A stretch of 64,000 nt of DNA from Candidatus Cloacimonadales bacterium (GCA_963663475.2 CAXXJV010000001.1:640001-704000); one strand, 5' to 3'. Numbered from the stretch's first letter, positions 8,530 to 64,000 are shown. Numbers and translations are program-made. Notes: generated by a model not told the origin, from the sequence alone.

Positions 8530-8608
8530 CATCCCTAATCCTTCCTTTACAGTCTTTCGATGAAAGTCCCAGTTTCATCGAAAGACTGTAAAGGAAGGAT
8601 TAAGGATG
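8530..8608. repeat. Long hairpin element, copy 1 (others at 29814-29894 and 54398-54478)
   Basis: CCTTCCTTTACAGTCTTTCGATGAAA-7 nt loop-TTTCATCGAAAGACTGTAAAGGAAGG. Confidence 0.9.
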
Positions 8609-29304: not shown

Positions 29305-31300
29305 CTTTACGCAGATGACAAGTAGTTACGGGATTGTCTCGAGGGATTCCAGCCCGCGGTTACGCTGAAGACAAGCGGTTACGGTGCCTATGGAGTGGAA
29401 GCATCCTTGCTTGCACACACATTATTCTGAGACAAGAGATGGTCTCAGTCCATAGTTTTTATAACTCGTGATTACGCAGAAGACAAGCGGTTACGGATTG
29501 GGTCGCGGGATTCCAGCCCGCGGTTACGCAGATAATAAAGTGGTAACGGTGCCTAAGGAGTGGAAGCATCCTTGCTTGCACACACATTATTCTGAGACCA
29601 GGGATGGTCTCAGTCCATAGTTTTTTTCTAGCCCGCGGTTGCGAAGGTATCATGCTGTTACCAGGCTTGGCATCTACTATCAGATGGTGGACTGCTTGTC
29701 CGTCACATTATTTTTTGTTAGTTTTTTCCTATTATCCCACTATTTGGGATTATCTTCACTCATCTTTGTAGCAAGTCTATAATTTATCTCAAATCAACAG
29801 AAAAATCGCCTATTCATCCATGTACCTTCCTTTACAGTCTTTCGATGAAACACGGACTTTCATCGAAAGACTGTAAAGGAAGGTACATGGATGACAAGAG
29901 AAAACAACCAGCCATCAAAGAAATGAAAATTTAGAAAAACTAAAAAAAATGAGTCTTCACAAGAGCCAGAAGACCTTTAATAATAAAAATTCTGGATCTA
30001 GTTCAAGTCTGGTGGAAATAATATAGGAAAATTAGAATATTTCATTACTATATTGATTCATCAAAAATCCCTGAAAGGGATAAAATAATTTAGTCCAGGG
30101 TTAGATGCTGAAAGTATCGCAACCCTGGGTAATTATGTATCTAAAAAAGTTTAATCCTGTAATGGTTTGATAAACATTGACTCCTTTCATATTATCTCCT
30201 AGAATTTTCTATTTTTTATCTAGGAAAGTGTACCAGTTTAAACTGCCATCTTCACCATAAGCCCTGTAACCACTTGTCTTCTGCGTAAACGCGGGCTGGA
30301 ATCCCGCGACCCATTCCCGTAACCGCTTGGCATCTACGTAACCGCGGGCTGGAATCCCGCGACCCAAGCCCATAACCACTTTATTATCTGCATAACCGCG
30401 GGCTGGAATCCCGCGACCCAAGCCCATAACCACTTGTAATCTGCATAAACGCGGGCTAGAATCCCGCGACCCAAGCCCGTAACCACTTTATTATCTGCGT
30501 AAACGCGGGCTGGAATCACGCGACCCAATCCCATAACCACTTTATTATCTGCGTAAACGCGGGCTGGAATCCCGCGACCCATTCCCGTAACCGCTTGGCA
30601 TCTACGTAACCGAGGGCTAGAATCCCGCGACCCAATTCCATAACCACTTGTAATCTGGGTAAACGAGGGCTAGAATCCCACGACCCAAGCCCGTAACCAC
30701 TTTATTATCTGCGTAAACGAGGGCTGGAATCCCACGACCCGAAGACGGGCAGGTTTTTGGCAAGGTAGATTTTTCCAAAAACTCTGTGTAACTCCTCTTT
30801 ACCTCGGTGAAACTCTGTGTTAAGGATAATTCTCTTTCGTCAATCCGTGGATAGACTTCTCTTGTAGGCAGTATTATACTGCCTACTGCGAGCAAGGATG
30901 CTCGCGTTCCCAGTTAGTCCCGCGTTCCCAGTAGTAAGTCCCGCACACAGTTAGAATCTTCTTTCTCTCCATCTCACTATCACCCTGTCTCTCCATCTCA
31001 CTATCACCCTGTTTCTCCATCACCCCTGCTTTGAGCCGAAAGGCGAAAATCCTCTTATTCGTGAAATTCGTTTTAATTCGAGTTAATTCGTGTAAAGAAT
31101 CTTCCTTCTTAAAACTCTGTGAACTCTGTGGAAACCTCTGTGAACTCTGTGTTAAGGTTCTTAAAAAATCCGTGAAATCCGTGAAATCCGTGGATAGACT
31201 TCTTTTGTAGGCAGTATAATACTGCCTACTGCGGGCAAGGATGCCCGCCTTCCCAGTTAGTCCCGCGACCCAAATATGGGCAGAATATAGCTTGCTTTCA
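29305..31300. repeat. Large REP-like mosaic
   Basis: Contains CGCGGG-ATTCCAG-CCCGCG units, a 37-bp-stem hairpin (29814-29894), GCGGGCA/TGCCCGC and GTAGGCAG/CTGCCTAC palindromes and CTCTGTG and ATTCG arms; ~29555-29990 is duplicated at ~54141-54575. Confidence 0.9.
30265..30740 (-). repeat. 53-54-bp tandem array, about 9 units
   Basis: GGGTCGCGGGATTCCAGCCCGCG(G/T)TTACGCAGAT(AATAAAG|TACAAG)YGGTTAYGGG repeated on the minus strand. Confidence 0.92.
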
Positions 31301-44144: not shown

Positions 44145-44622
44145 TCTTTCTCTCCATCTCTCTATCACTCCGTCACCACGTCTTTGAGCCGAAAGGCGAA
44201 AACCTTCTCTTGTAGGCAGTTCTTTACTGCCTACTGCGGGCAAGGATGCCCGCCTTCCCAGTTAGTCCCGCGACCCAATCCGTAACCGCTTTATTATCTG
44301 CATAAGCGCGGGCTGGAATCCCGCGACCCAAATACGGGCAGACTTTTAGCAAGCTAATTTTTTCCTAAACTCTGTGTAACTCTGTGATTACCTCTGTGAA
44401 CTCTGTGTTAAGGTTCTTAAAAAATCCGTGAAATTCGTGAAATCCGTGGATAGATTTCTTTTGTAGGCAGTATTATACTGCCTACTGCGGGCAAGGATGC
44501 CCGCCTTCCCAGTTAGTCCCGCATCCCAGTTAGAATCTTCTTATTTTTCACTTTTCATTTTTAATTCTTCATTCTTGCGAAGCAAGCATACCCGCCTTCC
44601 CAGTTAATGCCGAAAGGTGAAA
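44145..44622. repeat. REP-like mosaic between convergent genes
   Basis: Same modules as 30740-31300 in minus orientation. Confidence 0.85.
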
Positions 44623-48665: not shown

Positions 48666-49399
48666 GTTTTCGCCTTTCGGCTCAAAGATGCTTGCTTGGC
48701 AAGAATGAAGAATTAAAAATGAAAAGTGAAAAATAAGAAGAAAGAAGATTCTTTACACGAATTAACTCGAATTAAGACGAATTTCACGAATAAGAGGGTT
48801 TTCGCCTTTCGGCTCAAAGATGCTTGCTTGGCAAGAATGAAGAATTAAAAATGAAAAGTGAAAAATAAGAAGAAAGAAGATTCTTTACACGAATTAACTC
48901 GAATTAAGACGAATTTCACGAATAAGAGGATTTTCGCCTTTCGGCTCAAAGACGGGGTGATGGAGAGACAGGGTGATAGTGAGAAAGAAGATTCTAACTG
49001 TGTGCGGGACTAACTGGGAAGGCGGGCATCCTTGCCCGCAGTAGGCAGTATAATACTGCCTACAAGAGAAGTCTATCCACTGATTTCACGGATTTTTTAA
49101 GAACCTTAACACAGAGTTCACAGAGGTTATCACAGAGATTCACAGAGTTTTAATAAGGAAGAATAAGCCACCGAAAAAACCGATAATAATACGTGATTTA
49201 CCACAAAGGCACGAAGACACAAAAGGAAAAGAAGATTCTAACTGGGAATGCGGGACTAACTGGGAATGCGGGCATCCCTGCCCGCGGTTATGCAGATTAC
49301 AAGTGGTTACGGGAATGGGGCACGGGATTGTCTCTTAATTCCCCTTTCAGCTCGTAAGAGCGGTATGAGAGGGGTGCCGTAAGGCGGGGAGAGTAAACA
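48666..49399. repeat. REP-like mosaic including a 132-bp tandem duplication
   Basis: TTTTCGCCTTTCGGCTCAAAGA recurs with a 132-nt period (48667, 48799, 48931). Confidence 0.88.
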
Positions 49400-49461: not shown

Positions 49462-49884
49462 ATGGAAAGAAAAAAGAATATGACTCATAAGATTCAAAAG
49501 ACCTATAGTGAAAGTTTTAAAATTAAAGTTGTTGACGAAATAGAGAAGGGAGATTTAACTCAAGCTGGAGCTTGTAGACTTTACAATATTTCAGATAGCA
49601 ATGTGAGTAGATGGGTTGCCAATTATGGTATGAATGAACGAGTGGGAAAAAAGGTGGTAGTTATGACCGATAGAGAAATACGTGAATCTGACCTTTTAAG
49701 GAAAGAGAATAAGCAGTTAAAACGAGCATTAGAAGATAGTCAGTTCTCCAACGAAGTTCTAGAGAAATATATTCATTATATTGCAGAACAAAATGGTATT
49801 GATTTAAAAAAAAAGATCGATTCAGGTTTATCAGAAGATACTCAAAAACTCTTGATTTCAAGGTTGCTAAAAGGTCAGGAATAA
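49462..49884 (+). CDS. IS3 transposase OrfA (HTH, leucine zipper)
   Basis: YSESFKIKVV...YNI....V.RW; LRKENKQLK; A9G slippery tract at 49806-49815. Confidence 0.9.
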   Translation: MERKKNMTHKIQKTYSESFKIKVVDEIEKGDLTQAGACRLYNISDSNVSRWVANYGMNERVGKKVVVMTDREIRESDLLRKENKQLKRALEDSQFSNEVLEKYIHYIAEQNGIDLKKKIDSGLSEDTQKLLISRLLKGQE

Positions 49885-49889
49885 GCCAA

Positions 49890-50675
49890 ATGTGTAGTTT
49901 ATTACAAGTATCTAAATCAGGTTACTATAAATATCTTCAAACTGTCTCCCAGAGTTCTACAAATGACTCCCTATGTCTTTCCAGAGTTAAACAATATAGA
50001 AAAATTCAGCCTTATGCAGGCACTTATAAATGTTGGAAAATGCTACATAATGATGGTTTTAAAATTGGGAGAAATCATCTTAACTGCCTGCTTAAAGAAC
50101 ATAATATGTTGATCAGGAAGAAGAAGAAATATTGCAAAACTTCAATATCAGATGGTAGTAAGGTATATCCTAATTTACTTAAAGATACCGAAGTAAAGAG
50201 GAAAAATCAAGTTTGGGTAACTGATATTACTTATATTTCTAAAGGCAAAGGGTTTTATTATTTGTTTTTGCTAAGTGATATGTATACTAGACAGATATTG
50301 GATTATGAAGTTTCTTCTAATATGTTGACTGATAATCATATAAGGATGTTAAAAAGACAGCTAAACCATGTTGATAATGCTAACGATCTTATTCATCATT
50401 CAGATCATGGTTCTCAATATACAAGTAATGAGACTATTAGCCTTCTGAAAAAGCATGGTATAAAGATTAGTATGACTGGTGATGGTAAATGCTATGATAA
50501 CCCTATTGCTGAAAGAATAAACTGCACAATGAAGCATGAATTTGGTTTAAATCGGACATTTAGCACTATAGAAAGTCTTAAAAAAGCTACTAAAGATGCA
50601 GTAATGATCTATAACTCTCAGAGACTTCACAAAAGTTTGGGGTATTTTACTCCAAATGATTTTGCAAATCATTAA
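49890..50675 (+). CDS. IS3 transposase OrfB (DDE integrase core), fused to OrfA by -1 frameshift
   Basis: WVTDITY, HHSDHGSQY, DNPIAER...MKHE, YN..RLH.SLG; the -1 frame is open from the A-tract to ATG 49890. Confidence 0.93.
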   Translation: MCSLLQVSKSGYYKYLQTVSQSSTNDSLCLSRVKQYRKIQPYAGTYKCWKMLHNDGFKIGRNHLNCLLKEHNMLIRKKKKYCKTSISDGSKVYPNLLKDTEVKRKNQVWVTDITYISKGKGFYYLFLLSDMYTRQILDYEVSSNMLTDNHIRMLKRQLNHVDNANDLIHHSDHGSQYTSNETISLLKKHGIKISMTGDGKCYDNPIAERINCTMKHEFGLNRTFSTIESLKKATKDAVMIYNSQRLHKSLGYFTPNDFANH

Positions 50676-50862: not shown

Positions 50863-51095
50863 ACATTCCCCTTTCCAGCCCGCGGTTACACAGATAATAA
50901 AGCGGTTACGGATTGGGTCGCGGGATTCTAGCCCGCGGTTACGCAGATAATAAAGCGGTTACGGATTGGGTCGCGGGATTAACTGGGAAGGCGGGCATCC
51001 TTGCCCGCAGTAGGCAGTATAGAACTGCCTACAAGAAGAAATTACAAGCACTCACACGTGCTTGTTGCGGGCAAGGATGCCCGCCTTCCCAGTTA
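50863..51095. repeat. Continuation of the REP mosaic interrupted by the IS
   Basis: CGCGGG/CCCGCG units and ACTGGGAAGGCGGGCATCCTTGCCCGC modules in both orientations. Confidence 0.85.
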
Positions 51096-51204
51096 ACCCA
51101 TCTCCCCATTACCAATAAAAAAATCTATCATTTGACAAAAATATCTTAATTATAATATTGTTAATCGACACGGTAAAATTGCAATAAAAGGAAAGAAAAT
51201 AAAT

Positions 51205-53005: not shown

Positions 53006-55790
53006 GACTAACTGGGAAGAAGGGAATGCTTGTTTCGCAAGAATGAAGAATTAAAAATGAAAAGTGAAAAATAAAGAAGATTCTTTACACAAATTAACAC
53101 GAATTAAGACGAATTTCACGAATTTTTTAAGAACCTTAACACAGAGTTCACAGAGTTTTAAGAAACAAAATTCTTTACACAAATTAACACGAATTAAGAC
53201 GAATTTCACGAATAAGAAGAGCTCCTTAACACAGAGTTCATAGAGGTAAAGAGGAGTTTCACAGAGTTTAGGAAAAAATTAGCTTGCTAAAAGCCTGCCT
53301 GTCCTTGGGTCGCGGGATTCCAGCCCGCGGTTACGCAGATTACAGGTGGTTACGGGATTGGGTCGCGGGATACCAGCCCGCGGTTACGCAGATAATAAAG
53401 CGGTTACGGGAGTAACTGGGAAGGCGGGCATCCTTGCCCGCAGTAGGCAGTATTATACTGCCTACAAACGAAGTCTATCCACGGATTGACGAAAGAAAAT
53501 TATCCTTAACACAGAGTTACACAGAGTTAAAGAGGAGTTGCACAGAGTTTAGGAAAAAATTAGCTTGCTAAAAGCCTGCCTGTCCTTGGGTCGCGGGATT
53601 CCAGCCCGCGTTTACGCAGATTACAAGCGGTTACGGTATTGGGTCGCGGGATTCCAGCCCGCGTTTACGCAGATTACAAGTGGCTACGGGAATGGGTCGC
53701 GGGATTCCAGCCCGCGTTTACGTAGATAATAAAGCGGTTACGGGATTGGGTCGCGGGATTCCAGCCCGCGTTTACGCAGATAATAAAGTGGTTACGGGAT
53801 TGGGTCGCGGGATTCCAGCCCGCGTTTACGCAGATAATAAAGTGGTTACGGGAGTAACTGGGAAGGCGGGCATCCTTGCCCGCAGTAGGCAGTAAAGAAC
53901 TGCCTACAAAAGAAGTCTATCCACGGATTGACGAAAGAAAATTATCCTTAACACAGAGTTACACAGAGGTAAAGAGGAGTTGCACAGAGTTTAATTACAT
54001 AAATCTACCTAGCTAAAAGCCTGCCCGTATTTGGGTCGCGGGATTCCAGCCCGCGGTTACGCAGATAATAAAGCGGTTACGGTATTGGGTCGCGGGATTC
54101 CAGCCCGCGGTTACGCAGGTGTCATGTTGTTACCAGGCCTATGGAGTGGAAGCATCCTTGCTTGCACCCACATTATTCTGAAACCAGGGATAGTCTCAGA
54201 CCATAGTTTTTTTTAACCCGCGTTTACAAAGGTGGCATGCTGTTACCAGGCTTGGCATCTACTAGCAGATGGTGGACAGCTTTTCCGTCACATTATTTTT
54301 TGTTAGCTTTTTCCTATTATCCCATATTTGGGATTATCTTAACTTATCTTGCCACTAATTCTATAATTTATCTTAAATCAACAGAAAAATCACTTATTCA
54401 TCCATGTACCTTCCTTTACAGTCTTTCGATGAAACACGGACTTTCATCGAAAGACCGTAAAGGAAGGGGAAAGGATGACAAGAGAAAACAACCAGCCATC
54501 AAAGAAATGAAAATTTAGAAAAACTAAAAAAAAAATAAGTCTTCGCAAGAGCTAGAAGACCTTCAATAATAAAAAATCTGAAATATGAATAACATATAAA
54601 ACCAATACAGGGTAAGATCTATTAGATAATATTATAAGTGTGGTGGCAAGTATCTTACATAAGGAATATACATCCCTTGCTAACAGTTCTGATAGGCATT
54701 AAACCCAAATAATGCAATAGAGCTCTTCTCTAAAGCTCTATTGCACAATCTGTGTTAAAAAAAAACTGGCTGCAATGGGCAAGATGACCAACTTGTCTAA
54801 AAAGAAAGAAACTATCTGCTAGATTTTTCTATTTTTTATCTAGGAAAGTGTACCATTTTAAACTGCCATCTACATTATGGACTGAGACCATCCCTGGTCT
54901 CAGAATAGTGTGTGTGCAAGCAAAGATGCTTCCACTCAATAAGACCTGTAACAGCATGACACCTGTGTAACCGCGGGCTAGAATCCCGCGACCCAAGGAC
55001 AGACAGGCTTTTAGCAAGATAGATTTTTCCTAAATTCTGTGGTAACCTCTGTGAACTCTGTGTTTAGGATAATTTTGCTTTCGTCAATCCGTGGATAGAC
55101 TTCTTTTGTAGGCAGTATTATACTGCCTACTGCGGGGCAGGGATGCCCGCGTTCCCAGTTAGTCCCGCACCCCAGTTAGAATCTTCTTTCTCTCCATCTC
55201 TCTATCACTCCATCACCCCGTCTTTGAGCCGAAAGGCGAAAATCCTCTTATTCGTGAAATTCGTCTTAATTCGTATTAATTTGTGTAAAGCATCTTGTCC
55301 TATCACTTCTCCTTGTTGAATCTGCTATCGCCCTTCCAGGGCTTATATTTCTATTATTCAATATGGAGTGTCTTACGAACACTCCCTTTTAGCTGTTATC
55401 CCTTCGGGATAATTTTTTTTCTAACTAATGAATGATTATAAAACATATAAATATAATCACTCACTTTTCATTTTTAATTCTTCATTCTTCATTCTTCATT
55501 CTTGCGAAGCAAGCATCTTTGAGCCGAAAGGAGAAAAATCTTACGTCTTCATCTTCTCTGTGTTCTCTGTGGCTCTGTGGTTAGTAGGTATTTCTTCTTT
55601 TTATCGGTGTTTTCAGTGTTATCGGTGGCTAAATATTTCCTCTCTCTTCTTACTTATTCGTGTTTTATTTGTGTTCATTAGTGGCTAAACTCTTCTTCTT
55701 TCTTGTATTCTTTGTGCCTTAGTGGTGAAATAAAATTCGTGAAATTCCTTCTAATTCGCGTTAATTCGTGTAAAGAATTTCCAAAAATAT
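53006..55790. repeat. Large REP-like mosaic (2.8 kb) with 53-54-bp arrays and hairpin copy 3
   Basis: Five tandem CGCGGG/CCCGCG units at ~53587-53850 plus pairs nearby; hairpin 54398-54478; modules in + then - orientation. Confidence 0.9.
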
Positions 55791-55877
55791 CTTAAATTAA
55801 GAAAAAAACACTTGACGTCTCACTCAAGCCCCTTTTAATAGCCACTGTATTAAATAAGACATTTGAGGATTATTGAA

Positions 55878-56945
55878 ATGAATATAAATGGTAATATATT
55901 GGTAACAGGTGGTGCTGGTTTCATTGGTGCAAATTTCATTCACTATCTATTTGAACAAACAGATTTTACAGGCTTAGTAATCAACGTTGATAAATTAACT
56001 TATGCTGGAAATCTAGAAAATCTCTCTGAAATTTCTCATAAATACGATGATAGATATTGCTTTCATCAGATAGATATTTGCAACTATGCTGCAATGGATG
56101 TAATTTTTACCAAGTATAAGCCTCAAATAGTAGTCCATTTTGCTGCTGAATCCCATGTAGATAGGTCAATTCACGGACCAAAAGAATTCATTGAAACAAA
56201 TATTATCGGAACTTTTAACTTGCTTGAACTTGCAAAAAAACACTGGCAAGATAGACAAGATGTTCTCTTTCATCATATTTCAACTGATGAAGTTTATGGT
56301 TCTTTAGGAGAAACAGGTTATTTCTACGAAGATACACCTTATGATCCTCGTTCTCCTTACTCATCTTCCAAAGCATCTTCAGACCACCTTGTTTCAGCCT
56401 ATTTCCATACCTATAAATTACCAGTAACTATCTCCAACTGCTCTAATAACTACGGTCCATACCAATTCCCAGAAAAACTTATCCCTCTAATGATTTCTAA
56501 TATGTTAGAAGATAAGAATCTCCCTGTTTATGGTGATGGTAAAAATATCCGAGATTGGCTTTATGTAGAAGACCATTGCTCAGGTATCTGGAAAATAATC
56601 CAAAATGGTAGAAGAGGTCAAACCTACAATATCGGCGGAGAAAATGAATGGGAAAATATCAAACTTCTTCACGTACTTTGCGAAGTTGTCGCTAAAAAAT
56701 CAGGGAAAGATCTAAATAAAATATTAGATTTGATTACTTATGTTAAAGATAGAGCAGGACACGATAGACGCTATGCTATCAACTGCGATAAAATAAAGAA
56801 TGAACTCGGCTGGAAGCAATCTGTAGATTTCTCACAAGGCTTGGAAAAAACTGTTGAATGGTACTTAAATAATACAGAATGGATTGAGAATATTAAGACT
56901 GGGGAGTACCAGAAGTGGATTGATAAAAATTATTCGAATGAATAA
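55878..56945 (+). CDS. rfbB: dTDP-glucose 4,6-dehydratase
   Basis: GGAGFIG, DKLTYAGN, AAESHVDRS, STDEVYG, YSSSK, NNYGPYQFPEK, DR.GHD.RY; GAGG RBS before ATG 55878. Confidence 0.97.
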   Translation: MNINGNILVTGGAGFIGANFIHYLFEQTDFTGLVINVDKLTYAGNLENLSEISHKYDDRYCFHQIDICNYAAMDVIFTKYKPQIVVHFAAESHVDRSIHGPKEFIETNIIGTFNLLELAKKHWQDRQDVLFHHISTDEVYGSLGETGYFYEDTPYDPRSPYSSSKASSDHLVSAYFHTYKLPVTISNCSNNYGPYQFPEKLIPLMISNMLEDKNLPVYGDGKNIRDWLYVEDHCSGIWKIIQNGRRGQTYNIGGENEWENIKLLHVLCEVVAKKSGKDLNKILDLITYVKDRAGHDRRYAINCDKIKNELGWKQSVDFSQGLEKTVEWYLNNTEWIENIKTGEYQKWIDKNYSNE

Positions 56946-57109
56946 TTTTTATCATTTAATAATTTAAGAGTTTTTACCACAGAGCCACAGAGAACACAGA
57001 GAAGATAATTAAGAAAAAATATAATAACCACAGAGACACAGAGAACACAGAGAAGAAATTAAGAAAAAGAATAAACTCTATGCCCTCTGTGTCTCAGTGG
57101 TGAATAAAA

Positions 57110-57155
57110 GGTGCTTCAGATTATAGCAATCTGTAAGTCATAGGGCGAAGCTTGC
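57110..57155 (+). repeat. 46-nt conserved element, copy 1 of 4 (also 57912-57957, 59979-60024, 60872-60917)
   Basis: GTGCTTCAGATT-loop-AATCTGTAAGTCATAGGGCGAAGCTTGC. Confidence 0.85.
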
Positions 57156-57412
57156 TTTAAAATTGGATAACCATGGAATGCAAAAAAAAAATAGTTATAC
57201 CACAACCACAGAAAGTACTGAGAAGAAAATAAATAAGATTGACCTTTGTGCCCTCTGTGTCTCAGTGGTAAAAAAGAAATGTAATAACCACAGAGCCACT
57301 GAGAACACTGAGAAGAAAAATAATAAAGAATTACCTTTGTGTCTCAGTGGTGAAAAAAATTAGCTGTTAATTCTTCTCTGTGCTCTCTGTGTCTCTGTGG
57401 TGAAATAATAAA

Positions 57413-57808
57413 ATGGTAGGTTATATTATGGGTGATGGTTTGTACTCAGATATTACTAAGCAGATTATTGGTGCTGCAATCGAAGTTCATAGAAATTTAG
57501 GACCTGGATTGTTAGAATCAGTCTATGAGGTTTGTTTAATATCAGAATTAAAAAGTAGAAGTTTAGATGTGCAAAGCCAAGTCAATATTCCAATAATTTA
57601 TAAAAACATAAGACTTGATGACCACCTTCGGATAGATATTTTAGTAAATGATTGTGTCATAATAGAATTAAAATCTGTAAATAATTTGCTACCTATACAT
57701 GAAGCTCAAATGTTATCTTATATGAAATTAGCTAAAAAGAAAGTTGGTTTATTAATTAACTTTAATGCTAATATACTTGTTAATGGTGTAAAAAGGTTAA
57801 TACTATAA
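57413..57808 (+). CDS. GxxExxY protein (PD-(D/E)XK nuclease-like), copy 1; start may be Met at 57428
   Basis: IIGAAIEVHRNLGPGLLESVYE, RIDILV...VIIELKSV, HEAQ.LSY, GLLINF. Confidence 0.92.
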   Translation: MVGYIMGDGLYSDITKQIIGAAIEVHRNLGPGLLESVYEVCLISELKSRSLDVQSQVNIPIIYKNIRLDDHLRIDILVNDCVIIELKSVNNLLPIHEAQMLSYMKLAKKKVGLLINFNANILVNGVKRLIL

Positions 57809-58260
57809 AACAAAAAAGCTATAACCACAGAGTCGCAGAGAACACCGAGAAGATAAATAATAACAAGAACTAAAAACTCTGTGCCCTCTGTGTCTCAGTG
57901 GTGAGAATAAAGGTGCTTCAGATTATAACTATCTGTAAGTCATAGGGCGAAGCTTGCTAAAAATTTTATAACTATAGAATACTAAGAAAGAAATTTAACC
58001 ACAGAGCCACAGAGAACACTGAGAAGAAAGAATAAAAAAAATAAACTCTGTGCCCTCTGTGTCTCAGTGGTAAAAAAAAAGTATAGAAAGTAAAAGCTAT
58101 GTACCCACATGGGTGAGTATAAGAAGTGGATAGAAACTACTATAAATAAATGGTTTAACCACAGAGTCACAGAGAACACGGAGAAGAAAATAATAACAAA
58201 GAATACTTCTCTGTGTCCTCTGTGTCTCAGTGGTGAATAAAAATAATAAAAGGAGAAAGT

Positions 58261-59289
58261 ATGATTAATAAAGTTGAACTTAAAAACTTTGGTCCAATCA
58301 AACATTTGAATTGGCACAATATAAGCAATATAAACCTTATTATCGGAAAAAACTCTACCGGTAAAACCTTTCTTCTTAAATCTCTTTACACAGCTATGAA
58401 GACTATTGAAGAATATAAGCGTGGTGATAATCCAAAATCATTATCTGATATTCTTATAGATAAATTAATCTGGACTTTTCAAACAGATATTATAGGTGAT
58501 TTGGTAAATAAAGAGGAGAATTCTCTCAATTTTAGCATAGATTTTAATTATAAGCACTGGAACTATTCCTTTGGAAAAGAAACTTCTAAACAAATTAAAT
58601 CAATTGAATATCATATTGATAAAAGAGAAGATGATAATTCAATCTTTCTTCCTGCTAAAGAAATAACATCTATAGATAAAATCATTTTTGACAGTAGGGA
58701 TAATAAACAGCTTTTCGGCTTCGATAACACTTATTACGATCTAGCCAAAGCAATCAGACTAAATACACAAAAAGGTAGGAACTTCCCTGAATTTGCTAAT
58801 TGTAGAAAAAACCTAAAAGAAATTATTGATGGTAAAATTGAATTTGATACTACCACTGAAAAATGGTATTATAAAAAAGGAAAACAAAAATTTTCAATAG
58901 GTATGACTGCTGAAGGAATTAAAAAGATAGCAATTATTGATATTTTATTAGGAAATAGATATTTAACTAAAGATTCCATAATTTTTATTGATGAGCCAGA
59001 ATCTGCTCTTCACCCAAAAGCAATTTCTCAATTCCTAGAATTATTATCAGAACTAAGTGAATCAGGAATTCAGATTTTTATGGCTACCCATTCTTATTAT
59101 GTTATTAAAAGACTTTACTTAATTTCCCAGAAGAAAGAAAAATCAATTTCTGGGATTTCTTTTGATGATAGCCATGAAAACAATTTCATAGAGTTTGATT
59201 TAATAGATGGTATCCCTGAAAATTCAATCATCGAAGAATCTATAAACCTATACAAGGAAGAGGTTGATCTAGGCTGGGATAATGAATAA
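58261..59289 (+). CDS. ABC-type AAA ATPase (AAA_15/AAA_21, AbiEii-like)
   Basis: LKNFGPI, Walker A GKNSTGKT, A.GIKK signature, IFIDEPE..LHP, THS. Confidence 0.88.
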   Translation: MINKVELKNFGPIKHLNWHNISNINLIIGKNSTGKTFLLKSLYTAMKTIEEYKRGDNPKSLSDILIDKLIWTFQTDIIGDLVNKEENSLNFSIDFNYKHWNYSFGKETSKQIKSIEYHIDKREDDNSIFLPAKEITSIDKIIFDSRDNKQLFGFDNTYYDLAKAIRLNTQKGRNFPEFANCRKNLKEIIDGKIEFDTTTEKWYYKKGKQKFSIGMTAEGIKKIAIIDILLGNRYLTKDSIIFIDEPESALHPKAISQFLELLSELSESGIQIFMATHSYYVIKRLYLISQKKEKSISGISFDDSHENNFIEFDLIDGIPENSIIEESINLYKEEVDLGWDNE

Positions 59290-59791
59290 AATAATAACTG
59301 AATCAGGTATGAAATTCGGTCCTTTTGAAGATAAATATCTTTATCATATCGAACAAAGCGATATGGTAAAATCATTACAGATAAAAATAGTAGAGTTTTT
59401 AGTTTATCATAAAAAAACTTTGACATTTATTGAAGCAAAAAGCTCTTCACCAAATCCAGAGAATAAAAGATTAGATAATGATGAAAAATTTGATGTATAT
59501 ATTGATAATATTATCAGCAAATTTGTTAATTCTGTAAGTCTTTACATTTCAGTATATCTTAAAAGACTCACTGATATAATCGGGACGGAGTTAGAGAAAA
59601 TCAATCTTTCTAAAGCAAATATTCGTTTATTGTTAGTTATTAAAAATCACGAAACAAAATGGTTACCTCCAATTAGTGATGCAATAAAAGTCAAACTAAA
59701 TGCTGTATGTAAGATTTATAGTATTAATCCTAGTAATATAATAATTATGAATGAGCAAATGGCTATCAGTAAAGGATTGATAGCTGAATAA
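59282..59791 (+). CDS. Hypothetical protein, possible PD-(D/E)XK nuclease partner of the ATPase
   Basis: 8-nt overlap with the ATPase; VEF....TFIEAKSS motif. Confidence 0.55.
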   Translation: MNKIITESGMKFGPFEDKYLYHIEQSDMVKSLQIKIVEFLVYHKKTLTFIEAKSSSPNPENKRLDNDEKFDVYIDNIISKFVNSVSLYISVYLKRLTDIIGTELEKINLSKANIRLLLVIKNHETKWLPPISDAIKVKLNAVCKIYSINPSNIIIMNEQMAISKGLIAE

Positions 59792-60119
59792 GAAAAATAA
59801 GTGAAAAATTGTGGTATTGCTTCGCAATGGAGTTTAAAGAATAGAACACAGATAACTCAGATTGAACAGATATTAACAGATAAGAGAGATTAGGTTTAAT
59901 AAAGAATATAGAATGCATAAATAAAAGTTTTTTAATAATTAATTTTGTGTTCTATGTACCTTTTTGTTGAATAGAAACGGTGCTTCAGATTTCAGCAATC
60001 TGTAAGTCATAGGGCGAAGCTTGCAAAAAAAATAACCACAGAGCCACAGAGAACACTGAGAAGAAAAGAATAAAGAATTTAACTCTGTGCTCTCTGTGTC
60101 TCAGTGGTGAAATAATAAA

Positions 60120-60515
60120 ATGGTAGGTTATATAATGAGTGATGGTTTGTACTCAGATATTACTAAGCAGATTATTGGTGCTGCAATTGAAGTCCATAGA
60201 AATTTAGGACCCGGTTTATTAGAATCAGTCTATGAGGTTTGTTTAATATCAGAATTAAAAAGTAGAAGTTTAGATGTGCAAAGCCAAGTTAATATTCCAA
60301 TAATTTATAAAAACATAAGACTTGATGACCACCTTCGGATAGATATTTTAGTAAATGATTGTGTAATTATAGAATTAAAGTCGGTAAATAGTATATTACC
60401 TATCCATGAAGCCCAAGTATTATCTTATATGAAATTAGCTAAAAAGAAAGTTGGTTTATTAATTAATTTTAATGCTAATATACTAGTCAATGGTGTTAAA
60501 AGGTTGATACTATAA
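60120..60515 (+). CDS. GxxExxY protein, copy 2
   Basis: Four amino-acid differences from copy 1. Confidence 0.92.
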   Translation: MVGYIMSDGLYSDITKQIIGAAIEVHRNLGPGLLESVYEVCLISELKSRSLDVQSQVNIPIIYKNIRLDDHLRIDILVNDCVIIELKSVNSILPIHEAQVLSYMKLAKKKVGLLINFNANILVNGVKRLIL

Positions 60516-61012
60516 AACAGAAATACTATAAATACAGAGTCGCAGAGAACACTGAGAAGAAAAGAATAAAGAATTTAACTCTGTGCCCTCTGTATCTCTG
60601 TGGTAAATAAATTAAAATAATTAAATATCTTATTTTTTTTGAAGTGAGTAAAGTACTTCTTACTAAAACTCTGTAGCAATTGAAATATTTGCTAAAAAAA
60701 AAGAAAAATAAACTTGACGAATCTAATAATAGCAAGATTTATAGAGACTTGAGAGAATTAGGAAGGTTGGATTTCGTCTAAGATATACTAAGCGAAATTG
60801 TAATTCTTTTAATTCCATACGATTGTGAGTTTCTGGGAAACTGGAAAAATTATATTTATAGTGTGGAAATAGTGCTTCAGATTGCAGGGAATCTGTAAGT
60901 CATAGAGCGAAGCTTGCAATAAAAATAATTAATATTAGTTCATTCTAACAAATCATGTATCGCTCAGTAAGAACTATAATATTATAAAATAGAGTTGCTA
61001 TTATAACTAAAG

Positions 61013-63862: not shown

Positions 63863-63891
63863 CCACAGAATACACAGAATACACTGAAAAT

Positions 63892-64000
63892 ATGATTTAT
63901 GAAAAAGAGTTGTCTAAAAAAGTTATAGGTTGTGTTTTAAATGTTTATCATACACTTTGGTTATGGATTTTTAGAAAAAATCTATGAAAATCACTTATGA
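63892..64000 (+). pseudogene. Divergent GxxExxY gene start, frameshifted, at the window edge
   Basis: MIYEKELSKKVIGCVLNVYHTL then, in the +1 frame, GYGFLEKIYEN; preceded by a CCACAGAATACACAGAATACACTGA arm. Confidence 0.7.

Follow-up and report, generated by a model that had tools for sequence, protein, structure and literature searches.

Why should small genes of the GxxExxY family lie amid periodic hairpins? This question is raised by a 64,000-nucleotide stretch of DNA from a Candidatus Cloacimonadales bacterium (positions 640001-704000 of contig C1 of genome G000; hereafter, the window), whose own genome comprises 3.30 Mb in two contigs at 33% G+C. An earlier note on this DNA had proposed that the GxxExxY protein may be the cognate nuclease that recognises or propagates the repeats around its gene. 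We find that gene and hairpin arms form one evolutionary unit in about 20 phyla and that the spelling of the arm units is specific to the protein family that they accompany and to the clade within it. Judged from its sequence, there is an about even chance that the stretch is part of an array of selfish hairpin cassettes in the spacers of a polysaccharide operon, built like the intervening sequences (IVSs) of ribosomal RNA (rRNA) genes and with arms cognate to the cargo nuclease.

GxxExxY genes and periodic arms form one evolutionary unit

The hairpins are imperfect and about 75 nt long, with arms of two to four tandem 8-10-nt units that share the core C-R-C-N-R-A-N, stand in inverted orientation, and usually end outward in CCAC. 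Four PF13366 matches make up the whole complement of the window's genome: genes 1 and 2, which match TIGR04256 (E 5e-45; 152.6 bits at a cut-off of 35) as well as PF13366 (E 9e-44; 149.1 bits at a cut-off of 22), gene 3 (95.9 bits to PF13366), which is a pseudogene given its in-frame TGA, and gene 4, which is intact and lies 34 kb further on at C1:737591 (128 bits). Genes 1 and 2 each have an arm ending 11 nt 5' of the ATG and another beginning 15 nt 3' of the stop codon, in agreement with the 11 nt and 15-25 nt that the earlier note had given for both intact genes. Its description of the genes as embedded in hairpins is right for gene 3, which is enclosed by one: the left arm abuts the stop codon of a dehydrogenase gene and stands directly 5' of the ATG, where the note had seen a related arm, and the inverted partner follows 3' of the gene's own stop. 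It does not hold for genes 1 and 2, which are flanked by complete hairpins in the order right arm - gene - left arm and not enclosed by one. Gene 4 is flanked by ATTCGTG and CACGAAT arms.

The association extends far beyond this genome. We scored flanking inverted repeats at loci from an alignment of gene-4-like sequences (A2; 79 loci fetched from named genomes of about 20 phyla, 74 with full flanks) and from one of gene-1-like sequences drawn from a different collection (A3; 80 metagenome loci, 66 with full flanks), taking as threshold a score above 28, the 95th percentile of mismatched upstream/downstream pairs. This threshold is passed by 41 of 74 GxxExxY genes compared to 7 of 263 neighbouring genes (Fisher p 4e-25), among the small ones 4 of 77, and 29 of the 74 lie above the 99th percentile of mismatched pairs; in the metagenome sample, 31 of 66 loci pass. 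Arms are thus enriched at GxxExxY genes across genomes, as expected from the earlier note. Of the seven high-scoring neighbours, one is another GxxExxY gene and two are four-helix-bundle genes, small cassette genes in their own right with different periodic arms; the rest are rfbC and rfbD (both of which sit between cassettes), a methyltransferase gene, and one other. Polarity is also uneven, with 48 cassettes arranged left arm - gene - right arm and 6 the opposite way, so that genes 1 and 2 represent the minority form. Gene and arms are one evolutionary unit in about 20 phyla, and their coupling is strongly supported. As a separate observation, a Labilibaculum contig (L070, 1950-4266) carries two GxxExxY cassettes that alternate with rfbC and rfbD in a sugar-nucleotide/polysaccharide operon.

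This cross-phylum enrichment with its controls refutes a local accident, in which a segmental duplication would have copied hairpin and gene together without any functional link and to which we give next to no chance. What had spoken for it is that genes 1 and 2 constitute a direct duplication (copies of 300 nt, 95% alike and offset by 2707 nt, with a synonymous divergence, dS, of 0.29 between the genes) and that strong copies of the exact hairpin keep within about 5 kb: a profile of the eight hairpins finds them in C1:695.5-700.6 kb only, with weaker relatives near gene 4 and in a repeated region.

Within the phylum, a pattern of three CCAC-type units detects 4207 arms in 151 genomes as opposed to 343 in the reversed control. 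PF13366 is present in 106 of these genomes with up to 16 matches per genome, and the median arm count is 16 in the 106 gene-bearing genomes vs 3 in the 45 gene-less ones; the Spearman correlation of genes with arms is 0.57 (0.35 for the control pattern), figures that overstate the case because related genomes are not independent. Among 31 closer relatives, 21 have PF13366 matches, clustered in zones of 40-60 kb, and about one quarter of these matches are fragments or contain stop codons, with some broken genes split into two matches. Viral contigs hold just 15 loci (periodic arms in 5 of 7 close ones), suggesting that phages are not the main home of the family.

Tandem Repeats Finder (TRF) reports 318 GC-containing arrays with periods of 7-11 nt in the window's genome, 129 of which fit the core C-R-C-N-R-A. 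A strict three-unit pattern finds 104 arms but just 4 when the sequence is reversed. In a genome that is 87% coding, 76 of the 104 fall outside open reading frames (ORFs); by location, the 104 arms distribute as 42 in the 80-kb polysaccharide zone that holds all four GxxExxY genes, 30 in four prophage copies, and 32 elsewhere. Gene-less hairpins with this grammar are densest around the GxxExxY genes. At a strict threshold, 18 of the 318 periodic arrays have a close inverted partner, and many arrays really are solitary or partnered by an arm of another word; gene 1 alone among the four genes has strict-pattern arms within 90 nt on both sides.

Dispersed hairpins in spacers are also typical of repetitive extragenic palindrome (REP) families and of REPINs, and the genome has five Y1_Tnp matches that could in principle provide a RAYT or IS200-like transposase to move them. 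The repeats do not map to these genes. As the earlier note had stated, no RAYT gene is present in the window (zero Y1_Tnp matches), and all five matches elsewhere are at least 360 kb from the locus. The two best Y1 genes (C1:2619168-2619635 and C1:1464139-1464585) are flanked by an inverted GC-rich palindrome beginning GCCCAGGGT that is unrelated to the CACAGAG arms, and they constitute a REP-like system apart from that of the arms. Furthermore, a conserved GTAG or CGTC tag at one end of the palindrome is named for REP superfamilies in the accessible part of their description (PMC3733652), and either tag is absent from the arms, which end in CCAC and consist of CRCNRAN units. We therefore regard it as very improbable that the hairpins are a REP or REPIN family moved by a Y1 transposase of this genome.

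Unit spelling is specific to cargo family and clade

The seventh base of the core already separates the two samples. Threshold-passing cassettes show 29 G and neither T nor A among gene-1-like loci, vs 21 T, 4 A, and no G among gene-4-like loci (2 and 16 cassettes, respectively, have fewer than three cores). In a FastTree phylogeny of 172 proteins, 112 of which have at least three cores in arrays within 150 nt, a split with support 99 divides clade I (G in 59 cases, T in 3, A in 1) from clade II (T in 31, A in 13, and G in a single case). A 16-row subclade, likewise with support 99, is mostly of the CACGAAA type (9 A and 2 T in 11 labelled rows) and combines relatives of the window's genome with members of 7 named phyla (Planctomycetota, Calditrichota, Fidelibacterota, Cloacimonadota, Bacteroidota, Verrucomicrobiota, and others). 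Across the tree, the unit type requires 10 changes, whereas 200 shuffles of the labels require 41 on average and never fewer than 35, which bears out the co-phylogeny of protein and arm word that the earlier note had envisaged. The window's genome follows the rule, with CACAGAG at genes 1 and 2, CACGAAT at gene 4, and CACAGAA at gene 3. That a non-coding word is kept across phyla and more than 50% protein divergence implies selection on the word.

A second cargo family provides a control. Four-helix-bundle genes of TIGR02436 occur in 118 of the 151 phylum genomes with up to 26 matches per genome; of 28 fully flanked loci, 15 pass the score threshold with inverted periodic arms. None of the 28 has three or more CRCNRAN cores, vs 22 of 29 GxxExxY loci of the relatives; their words are AGTGACGAG, TTAGCG, AACAGAT, TAGGTG, and GTCGAGAG, among others. 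Unit spelling depends on the cargo family and, within it, on the clade. Two cargo families with two grammars in the same genomes suggest that the arms are cognate to their cargo and disfavour a common host factor.

Such a factor, be it a recombinase, a repair pathway, or a phage function, would keep or spread the hairpins with the GxxExxY and four-helix genes as mere passengers or with landing preferences. It would readily account for arms without a gene (in genome G013, in prophage copies, and in gene-less genomes), for host genes like rfbC and rfbD that also lie between arms, and for the vertical inheritance of gene 1 described below. Yet a common external factor would predict a single grammar, so that the two grammars count against it, the spelling tracks the cargo tree, and the 120 kb mapped around the locus contain no recombinase except an IS3-type transposase pair. 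We consider this explanation rather improbable.

Two observations touch the four-helix family itself. Its S23p/Avd-like genes stand in their own periodic hairpins with several distinct words (L075:899-1285, L041:5835-6194, and L251-L280). The window's genome has zero TIGR02436 matches, and a CAGAT-type (AACAGAT-like) array with a weak inverted partner at window positions 59850-59973, which resembles the arms of TIGR02436 cassettes in related genomes, may therefore be an orphan arm of the four-helix type.

Candidate nuclease, turnover at one site, and transcription

The GxxExxY protein of about 126 aa is predicted from sequence and structural model to be a minimal Cas4/RecB-like PD-(D/E)XK nuclease with all catalytic residues present. 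An alignment of 26 sequences shows G25, G27, E30, Y33, D70, E80, K82, Q94, Y98, and N111 as invariant. The AlphaFold model (pLDDT 94.9) has its best match among solved folds in Cas4 SSO0001 (E 5e-4, TM 0.53), followed by lambda exonuclease and the nuclease domains of AddAB/AdnAB, with Hjc resolvases scoring lower; a profile search of PDB sequences found no relative (best E 0.34). Enzymatic activity is plausible in light of the invariant E30, D70, E80, and K82, the model with its Cas4 fold, and a ratio of nonsynonymous to synonymous substitutions (dN/dS) of 0.05-0.11.

The units of one cassette change in concert. The same base is found at core positions 2, 4, and 5 with frequencies of 0.91, 0.61, and 0.89 within an arm and 0.83, 0.61, and 0.90 between the two arms, compared to 0.58, 0.34, and 0.61 between cassettes, so units are kept alike per cassette both within and between arms. 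The contents of a fixed chromosomal site also turn over. Six species of the genus differ in what follows one and the same dehydrogenase gene, whose protein is 94-96% identical among them: G000 and G004 have a type-3 cassette with arms that differ in concert (CACAGAA vs CACCGAA), and G001, G002, G003, and G006 have a type-4-like cassette with its own CCACTAAT/CACAAAT arms amid remnants of the type-3 hairpin. G003 retains the entire old type-3 left arm, and G002 the final ~35 nt of the old type-3 gene together with its right arm; the left junction is common to all four genomes with the type-4-like cassette, so that a single old insertion must have been succeeded by deletions that differ between them. 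In two of the six species, the gene at this site is broken. At a fixed chromosomal site, one cassette thus takes the place of another or becomes nested in it. No clear target duplication was seen at the nested type-4 insertion, no systematic search for duplications having been made, and no transposase sharing the arm ends was found.

This turnover speaks against arms that merely serve as operator-like sites, by which the protein would regulate its own expression or stability, of an autoregulated resident gene, for example a defence or repair nuclease, without any mobility. Clade-specific spelling, strong purifying selection, a stable position, and a variable locus beside the candidate defence system HEC-02 would all suit such an arrangement. 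However, one site shows both nesting and replacement of cassettes, gene-less copies are scattered, the same protein subclade occurs with the same arms in 7 phyla, and about one quarter of the PF13366 matches in relatives are fragmentary or stop-bearing. Operator sites of this kind therefore appear distinctly improbable.

Cassettes are inserted in the direction of their host operon. Of 113 GxxExxY genes, 100 share the orientation of their upstream neighbour; 67 have both neighbours on their own strand and 6 have both on the other, and the median distance from upstream stop codon to gene start is 70 nt. Co-orientation and short gaps are consistent with read-through transcription. There is a precedent in the IVS of the Coxiella 23S rRNA, in which, according to the accessible part of its description, a 28-bp terminal stem is cut by RNase III and an ORF for the four-helix protein S23p lies in the loop (PMC4990558). 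It is hence conceivable that the arms act in RNA only, as IVS-type stems for RNase III removal of a selfish ORF, and that the protein does not recognise them at all. Apart from this precedent, the orientation bias (67 vs 6), the tight insertion into spacers, and stems that are 87% Watson-Crick fit this idea. On the other side, a stem would work with any word, whereas the core is conserved from phylum to phylum and changes with cargo family and clade; many arrays are partnerless, with 18 of 318 having a close inverted partner at the strict threshold; and genes 1 and 2 are not stem-enclosed. Moreover, the mismatches in 72 stems comprise 62 G-U compared to 72 A-C pairs on the sense strand, which is no G-U excess and gives no support for selection on an RNA stem. 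We consider an RNA-only role of the arms unlikely.

The preferred reading, arms that are cognate to the cargo of selfish cassettes, would involve three steps of unequal standing. First, the GxxExxY protein would bind the cores of its own arms, probably with several protomers side by side, for which we see a somewhat better than even chance. Second, and somewhat short of an even chance, cutting at or beside the paired arms might start copying or recombination; this step would homogenise the units, leave gene-less hairpins behind, and occasionally put a cassette into another hairpin. Third, by analogy with the 23S rRNA IVS, it is a toss-up whether the cassette is transcribed by read-through and its paired RNA arms are cut by RNase III, so that insertion into an operon would do little harm. 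A role of the nuclease in both recognising and spreading the arms seems plausible from the sequences.

Several observations weigh against this reading. Only 55% (A2) and 47% (A3) of cassettes pass the repeat threshold, and a first, cruder pass on relatives, in which some start codons were miscalled, placed 9 of 31 cassettes above the 95th percentile of mismatched pairs, a null inflated because the arms share one grammar. Among ~2514 ORFs ranked by flanking repeats, the gene 3 remnant comes 11th, gene 1 16th, gene 2 40th, and gene 4 61st, and host genes of the polysaccharide zone also rank high because they are located between hairpins. About 30 arms lie in spacers of the four Mu-like prophage copies, which carry no GxxExxY gene. 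The complete genome G013 has 11 arms and zero PF13366 matches, 8 of the 45 gene-less genomes have at least 20 arms, and 12 gene-bearing genomes have at most 2 strict-pattern arms. Most arm-rich gene-less genomes carry four-helix genes, whose arms use other words, and in the gene-less, arm-rich drafts G017 and G035 the arms are at contig ends, so that genes may be unassembled. Physical linkage of gene and arms should by itself produce some co-variation through common descent, and since four-helix cassettes share the architecture without a nuclease, cutting by the cargo is unnecessary for the design. The lack of a G-U excess belongs here as well. Neither an excision product nor a target duplication (without a systematic search for duplications) nor a recent insertion was seen.

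Gene 1 in particular behaves as a resident. It follows the conserved long-loop hairpin after rfbB in G000, G003, G004, and G006, and in G002 gene 1 is missing and the rfbB hairpin remains; four of the five species compared, namely, that of the window and three of its four sisters, thus have gene 1 in the same position, at a dS of ~1. Its orthologues show dN/dS of 0.05-0.11 at dS of about 0.8-1.1, and gene 1 looks from these sequences like a vertically inherited, host-retained gene under strong purifying selection. Genes 1 and 2 are long-standing residents here and not recent arrivals, much like RAYT genes. For the cognate nuclease proposed in the earlier note, this leaves a mixed picture: enrichment, co-phylogeny, and the four-helix control favour it, and arms without a gene, prophage arms, the resident gene 1, and nuclease-free cargo speak against a simple REP-RAYT-like dependence.

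More speculatively, and clearly short of an even chance, GxxExxY cassettes, four-helix-bundle cassettes, and classical rRNA IVSs might belong, as separate branches, to a single undescribed class of miniature replicators, in which a protein of ~125 aa reads a word repeated along its own hairpin arms by a simple protein-to-word code set by family and clade; GxxExxY would in addition be a nuclease that initiates copying, a PD-(D/E)XK counterpart of REPIN-RAYT systems in about 20 phyla. PF13366/TIGR04256, a large and widespread family without assigned function, gains a testable partner in a heptamer word that is predictable from the protein clade, which opens the nuclease to binding and cleavage experiments with built-in specificity controls. 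Three things that have been treated separately are joined, namely, ORF-bearing rRNA IVSs with their unexplained heptamers, the four-helix-bundle (S23p/Avd-like) family, and a common type of intergenic hairpin at which short-read assemblies break. If cassettes recombine at their hairpins, this would help explain the reshuffling of polysaccharide and defence loci, with HEC-02 between two cassette copies as a case in the window; if the miniature-replicator class is real, nesting and recombining elements would reshuffle variable polysaccharide and defence clusters.

The window and known systems compared

All window genes from position 55863 onward are on the plus strand and belong to polysaccharide synthesis, beginning with an rfbB-like dehydratase, a TupA-like ATP-grasp protein, and a UDP-sugar dehydrogenase, and the locus extends ~48 kb past the window end. 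The host sites of the cassettes are thus spacers between protein-coding genes of a polysaccharide operon and not a 23S rRNA helix; no rRNA was found in the window, and Rfam at gathering thresholds gave zero matches in the window and three other loci. A permissive Rfam scan produced microRNA-precursor matches on hairpins only, which we judged spurious.

Table. Hairpins, arms, and genes of the cassette region (window coordinates; z, folding score as single-stranded DNA)
Feature	Position	Strand	Remarks
Solitary right-type arm (CTCTGTG units)	55553..55581	+	5' of rfbB-like gene; 1 substitution from arm consensus; family D4
Hairpin directly 3' of rfbB-like gene	56976..57102	+	left arms 56976-57004 and 57027-57055 plus one right arm; z -6.1
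Degenerate hairpin copy	57199..57270	+	nhmmer E 3e-16; fold of 57197-57272 z -1.1
Hairpin (57287-57353) with extra right arm (57373-57401)	57287..57401	+	arm ends 11 nt 5' of gene 1; z -3.8
GxxExxY gene 1	57413..57808	+	likely start 57428; 126 aa; TIGR04256 and PF13366 match
Hairpin 15 nt 3' of gene 1 stop	57824..57905	+	z -3.7
Gene-less hairpin	57998..58070	+	0 substitutions from arm; z -5.5
Gene-less hairpin just 5' of HEC-02 pair	58158..58234	+	z -7.4
HEC-02 candidate defence pair	58261..59791	+	AAA_21 ATPase 58261-59289; 169-aa partner 59282-59791
Hairpin ending 11 nt 5' of gene 2	60035..60108	+	z -4.8
GxxExxY gene 2	60120..60515	+	protein 97% identical to gene 1
Hairpin 15 nt 3' of gene 2 stop	60531..60606	+	z -4.1
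Cassette 3 left arm (CACAGAAT units)	63864..63888	+	begins at dehydrogenase stop codon; right arm C1:704269-704292 outside window
GxxExxY gene 3, 5' part	63892..64000	+	continues to about C1:704251; frameshifted, one in-frame TGA

The arms in the window consist of three units of 8-9 nt, of which the 7-nt cores pair and the 1-2-nt spacers are often unpaired. Eight left and three right arms, all in 55553-60559, are within 6 substitutions of a 29-nt arm, and the window arms group into 8-copy repeat families. Folded as single-stranded DNA, 7 of 8 hairpins reach z of -3.7 to -7.4, and 0 of 200 shuffles fold equally well; a generic hairpin finder proved too strict for such imperfect stems and recovered 2 window hairpins. 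The hairpin 3' of the rfbB-like gene is conserved in sister species, and the two hairpins flanking gene 2 have identical loops. Units of roughly 8-11 nt, and the same grammar in other repeats of the window, had been reported in the earlier note; TRF gives periods of 8-10 nt for the CACAGAG-type arms and equally for the ATTCGTG, AACTCTGTG, and AAATCCGTG arrays elsewhere in the window.

Further repeats accompany or resemble the hairpins. A 58-nt element beginning GGTGCTTCAGATT stands beside them at window positions 57107-57164, 57909-57966, 59976-60033, and 60869-60926, with a fifth and last genome copy at C1:912069-912128 on the minus strand, and it is also found 3' of the rfbB hairpin in G002 and G004. 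It has zero Rfam matches and folds into a small hairpin with a variable loop, as judged from 6 sequences (one of them misplaced) with slight variation. Compound arrays in which ATTCGTG, CTCTGTG, and ATCCGTG (or their complements) follow in succession without a nearby inverted partner lie at 31057-31192, 44368-44448, 48755-49149, and 53087-53991 and recur in both orientations. The Mu-like prophage copies (portal, terminase, Mu F, tape measure), at C1:1-20000, C1:1368000-1387000, C2:1-10300 (inverted), and C2:308000-327000, also hold GAGTTAG-type arrays in their spacers.

The HEC-02 pair, which lies between genes 1 and 2, matches the PADLOC models HEC-02A (E 1e-145) and HEC-02B (E 1e-53) and is also found 3' of gene 1 in the sister genome G003 (84.5% and 59.5% identity). 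In two wastewater runs, the contigs of a related strain span this pair, with 37 differences in 1804 nt, as well as the flanking genes, but leave genes 1 and 2 uncovered. Contigs of two source-like sequencing runs break at hairpins; the joints are too short-sided or of unknown content, and we draw no inference from them. Elsewhere in the window, an IS3-type transposase pair (HTH_Tnp_1 and rve; 49462-50675) comes before a perfect inverted repeat of 31 nt with a loop of 56 nt (50979-51096), which belongs to another, GC-rich family. A separate family of near-perfect palindromes with arms of 26-37 nt and a 7-nt loop is found at 8530-8608, 29814-29894, and 54409-54467, and its 22-nt core has ~65 occurrences in the genome.

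Among known systems, the order of hairpin, gene 1, hairpins, HEC-02, hairpin, gene 2, and hairpin is reminiscent of integrons, whose gene cassettes carry attC hairpins. Like these, the promoter-less genes of the window alternate with imperfect hairpins in one orientation at a variable locus. Unlike in integrons, gene-less hairpin runs occur and each cargo has its own hairpin grammar. The 120 kb mapped contain neither an integron integrase nor attI, and among their 89 ORFs a Pfam scan detected no tyrosine recombinase, only the IS3-type transposase pair. Homing endonuclease genes, which include PD-(D/E)XK-type ones, resemble the cassettes as small nuclease genes that form selfish inserts and pass between distant lineages. 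They differ in that there is no intron or intein here, no recognition site interrupted by the gene was identified, and the periodic inverted arms have no counterpart.

The TAACTGA heptamer repeats of Beggiatoaceae, Cyanobacteria, and Bacteroidetes (PMC4679880) share with the arms that they are short tandem words in spacers, patchily distributed across phyla and lacking a mechanism. As far as the available part of their description goes, they differ as direct repeats just 5' of start codons that were proposed to be regulator sites, and neither an inverted partner nor a linked gene family is part of that account (PMC4679880).

A closer likeness is found in REPIN-RAYT systems (PMC3116915, PMC3337134, PMC5581495), where, in the accessible parts of these papers, an enzyme gene is flanked by the repeats that it presumably serves, hairpins are dispersed in spacers, and the enzyme gene is low-copy, vertically inherited, and under purifying selection. 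RAYT genes are described there as retained, working genes (PMC5581495), as gene 1 seems to be here. The differences are a PD-(D/E)XK instead of an HUH Y1 enzyme, periodic arrays with a 7-nt core instead of a tagged palindrome, a GxxExxY gene that commonly lies inside the hairpin, and the presence of another repeat at the Y1 genes of this genome.

Our literature search, outside of which most subscription journals lie, found nothing linking PF13366/TIGR04256 to repeats and no paper describing this gene-plus-repeat pattern. That the word follows the nuclease tree across many phyla points to an undescribed selfish gene-plus-repeat element built like an rRNA IVS. The differences from the helix-45 IVS of the Coxiella burnetii 23S rRNA with its S23p ORF (PMC4990558) are that the cargo here is a predicted PF13366 PD-(D/E)XK nuclease and not S23p, that the site is a spacer between protein-coding genes and not an rRNA helix, and that there are a CRCNRAN word, many gene-less copies, and genes 1 and 2 between hairpins. 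There are also likenesses. As far as the accessible part of the Coxiella work goes, that IVS has a small ORF in the loop of a terminal-repeat stem of ~28 bp, a layout matched by cassette 3 and most cassettes elsewhere (48 vs 6). It is transcribed within the host transcript, is regarded as selfish, often has a decaying ORF, and carries beside this ORF tandem GACAGAT heptamers whose number varies between strains (PMC4990558). In these partial data, GACAGAT is the same type of word as the AACAGAT arms of the four-helix-bundle genes of TIGR02436 in the phylum studied here, which are of the S23p family themselves.

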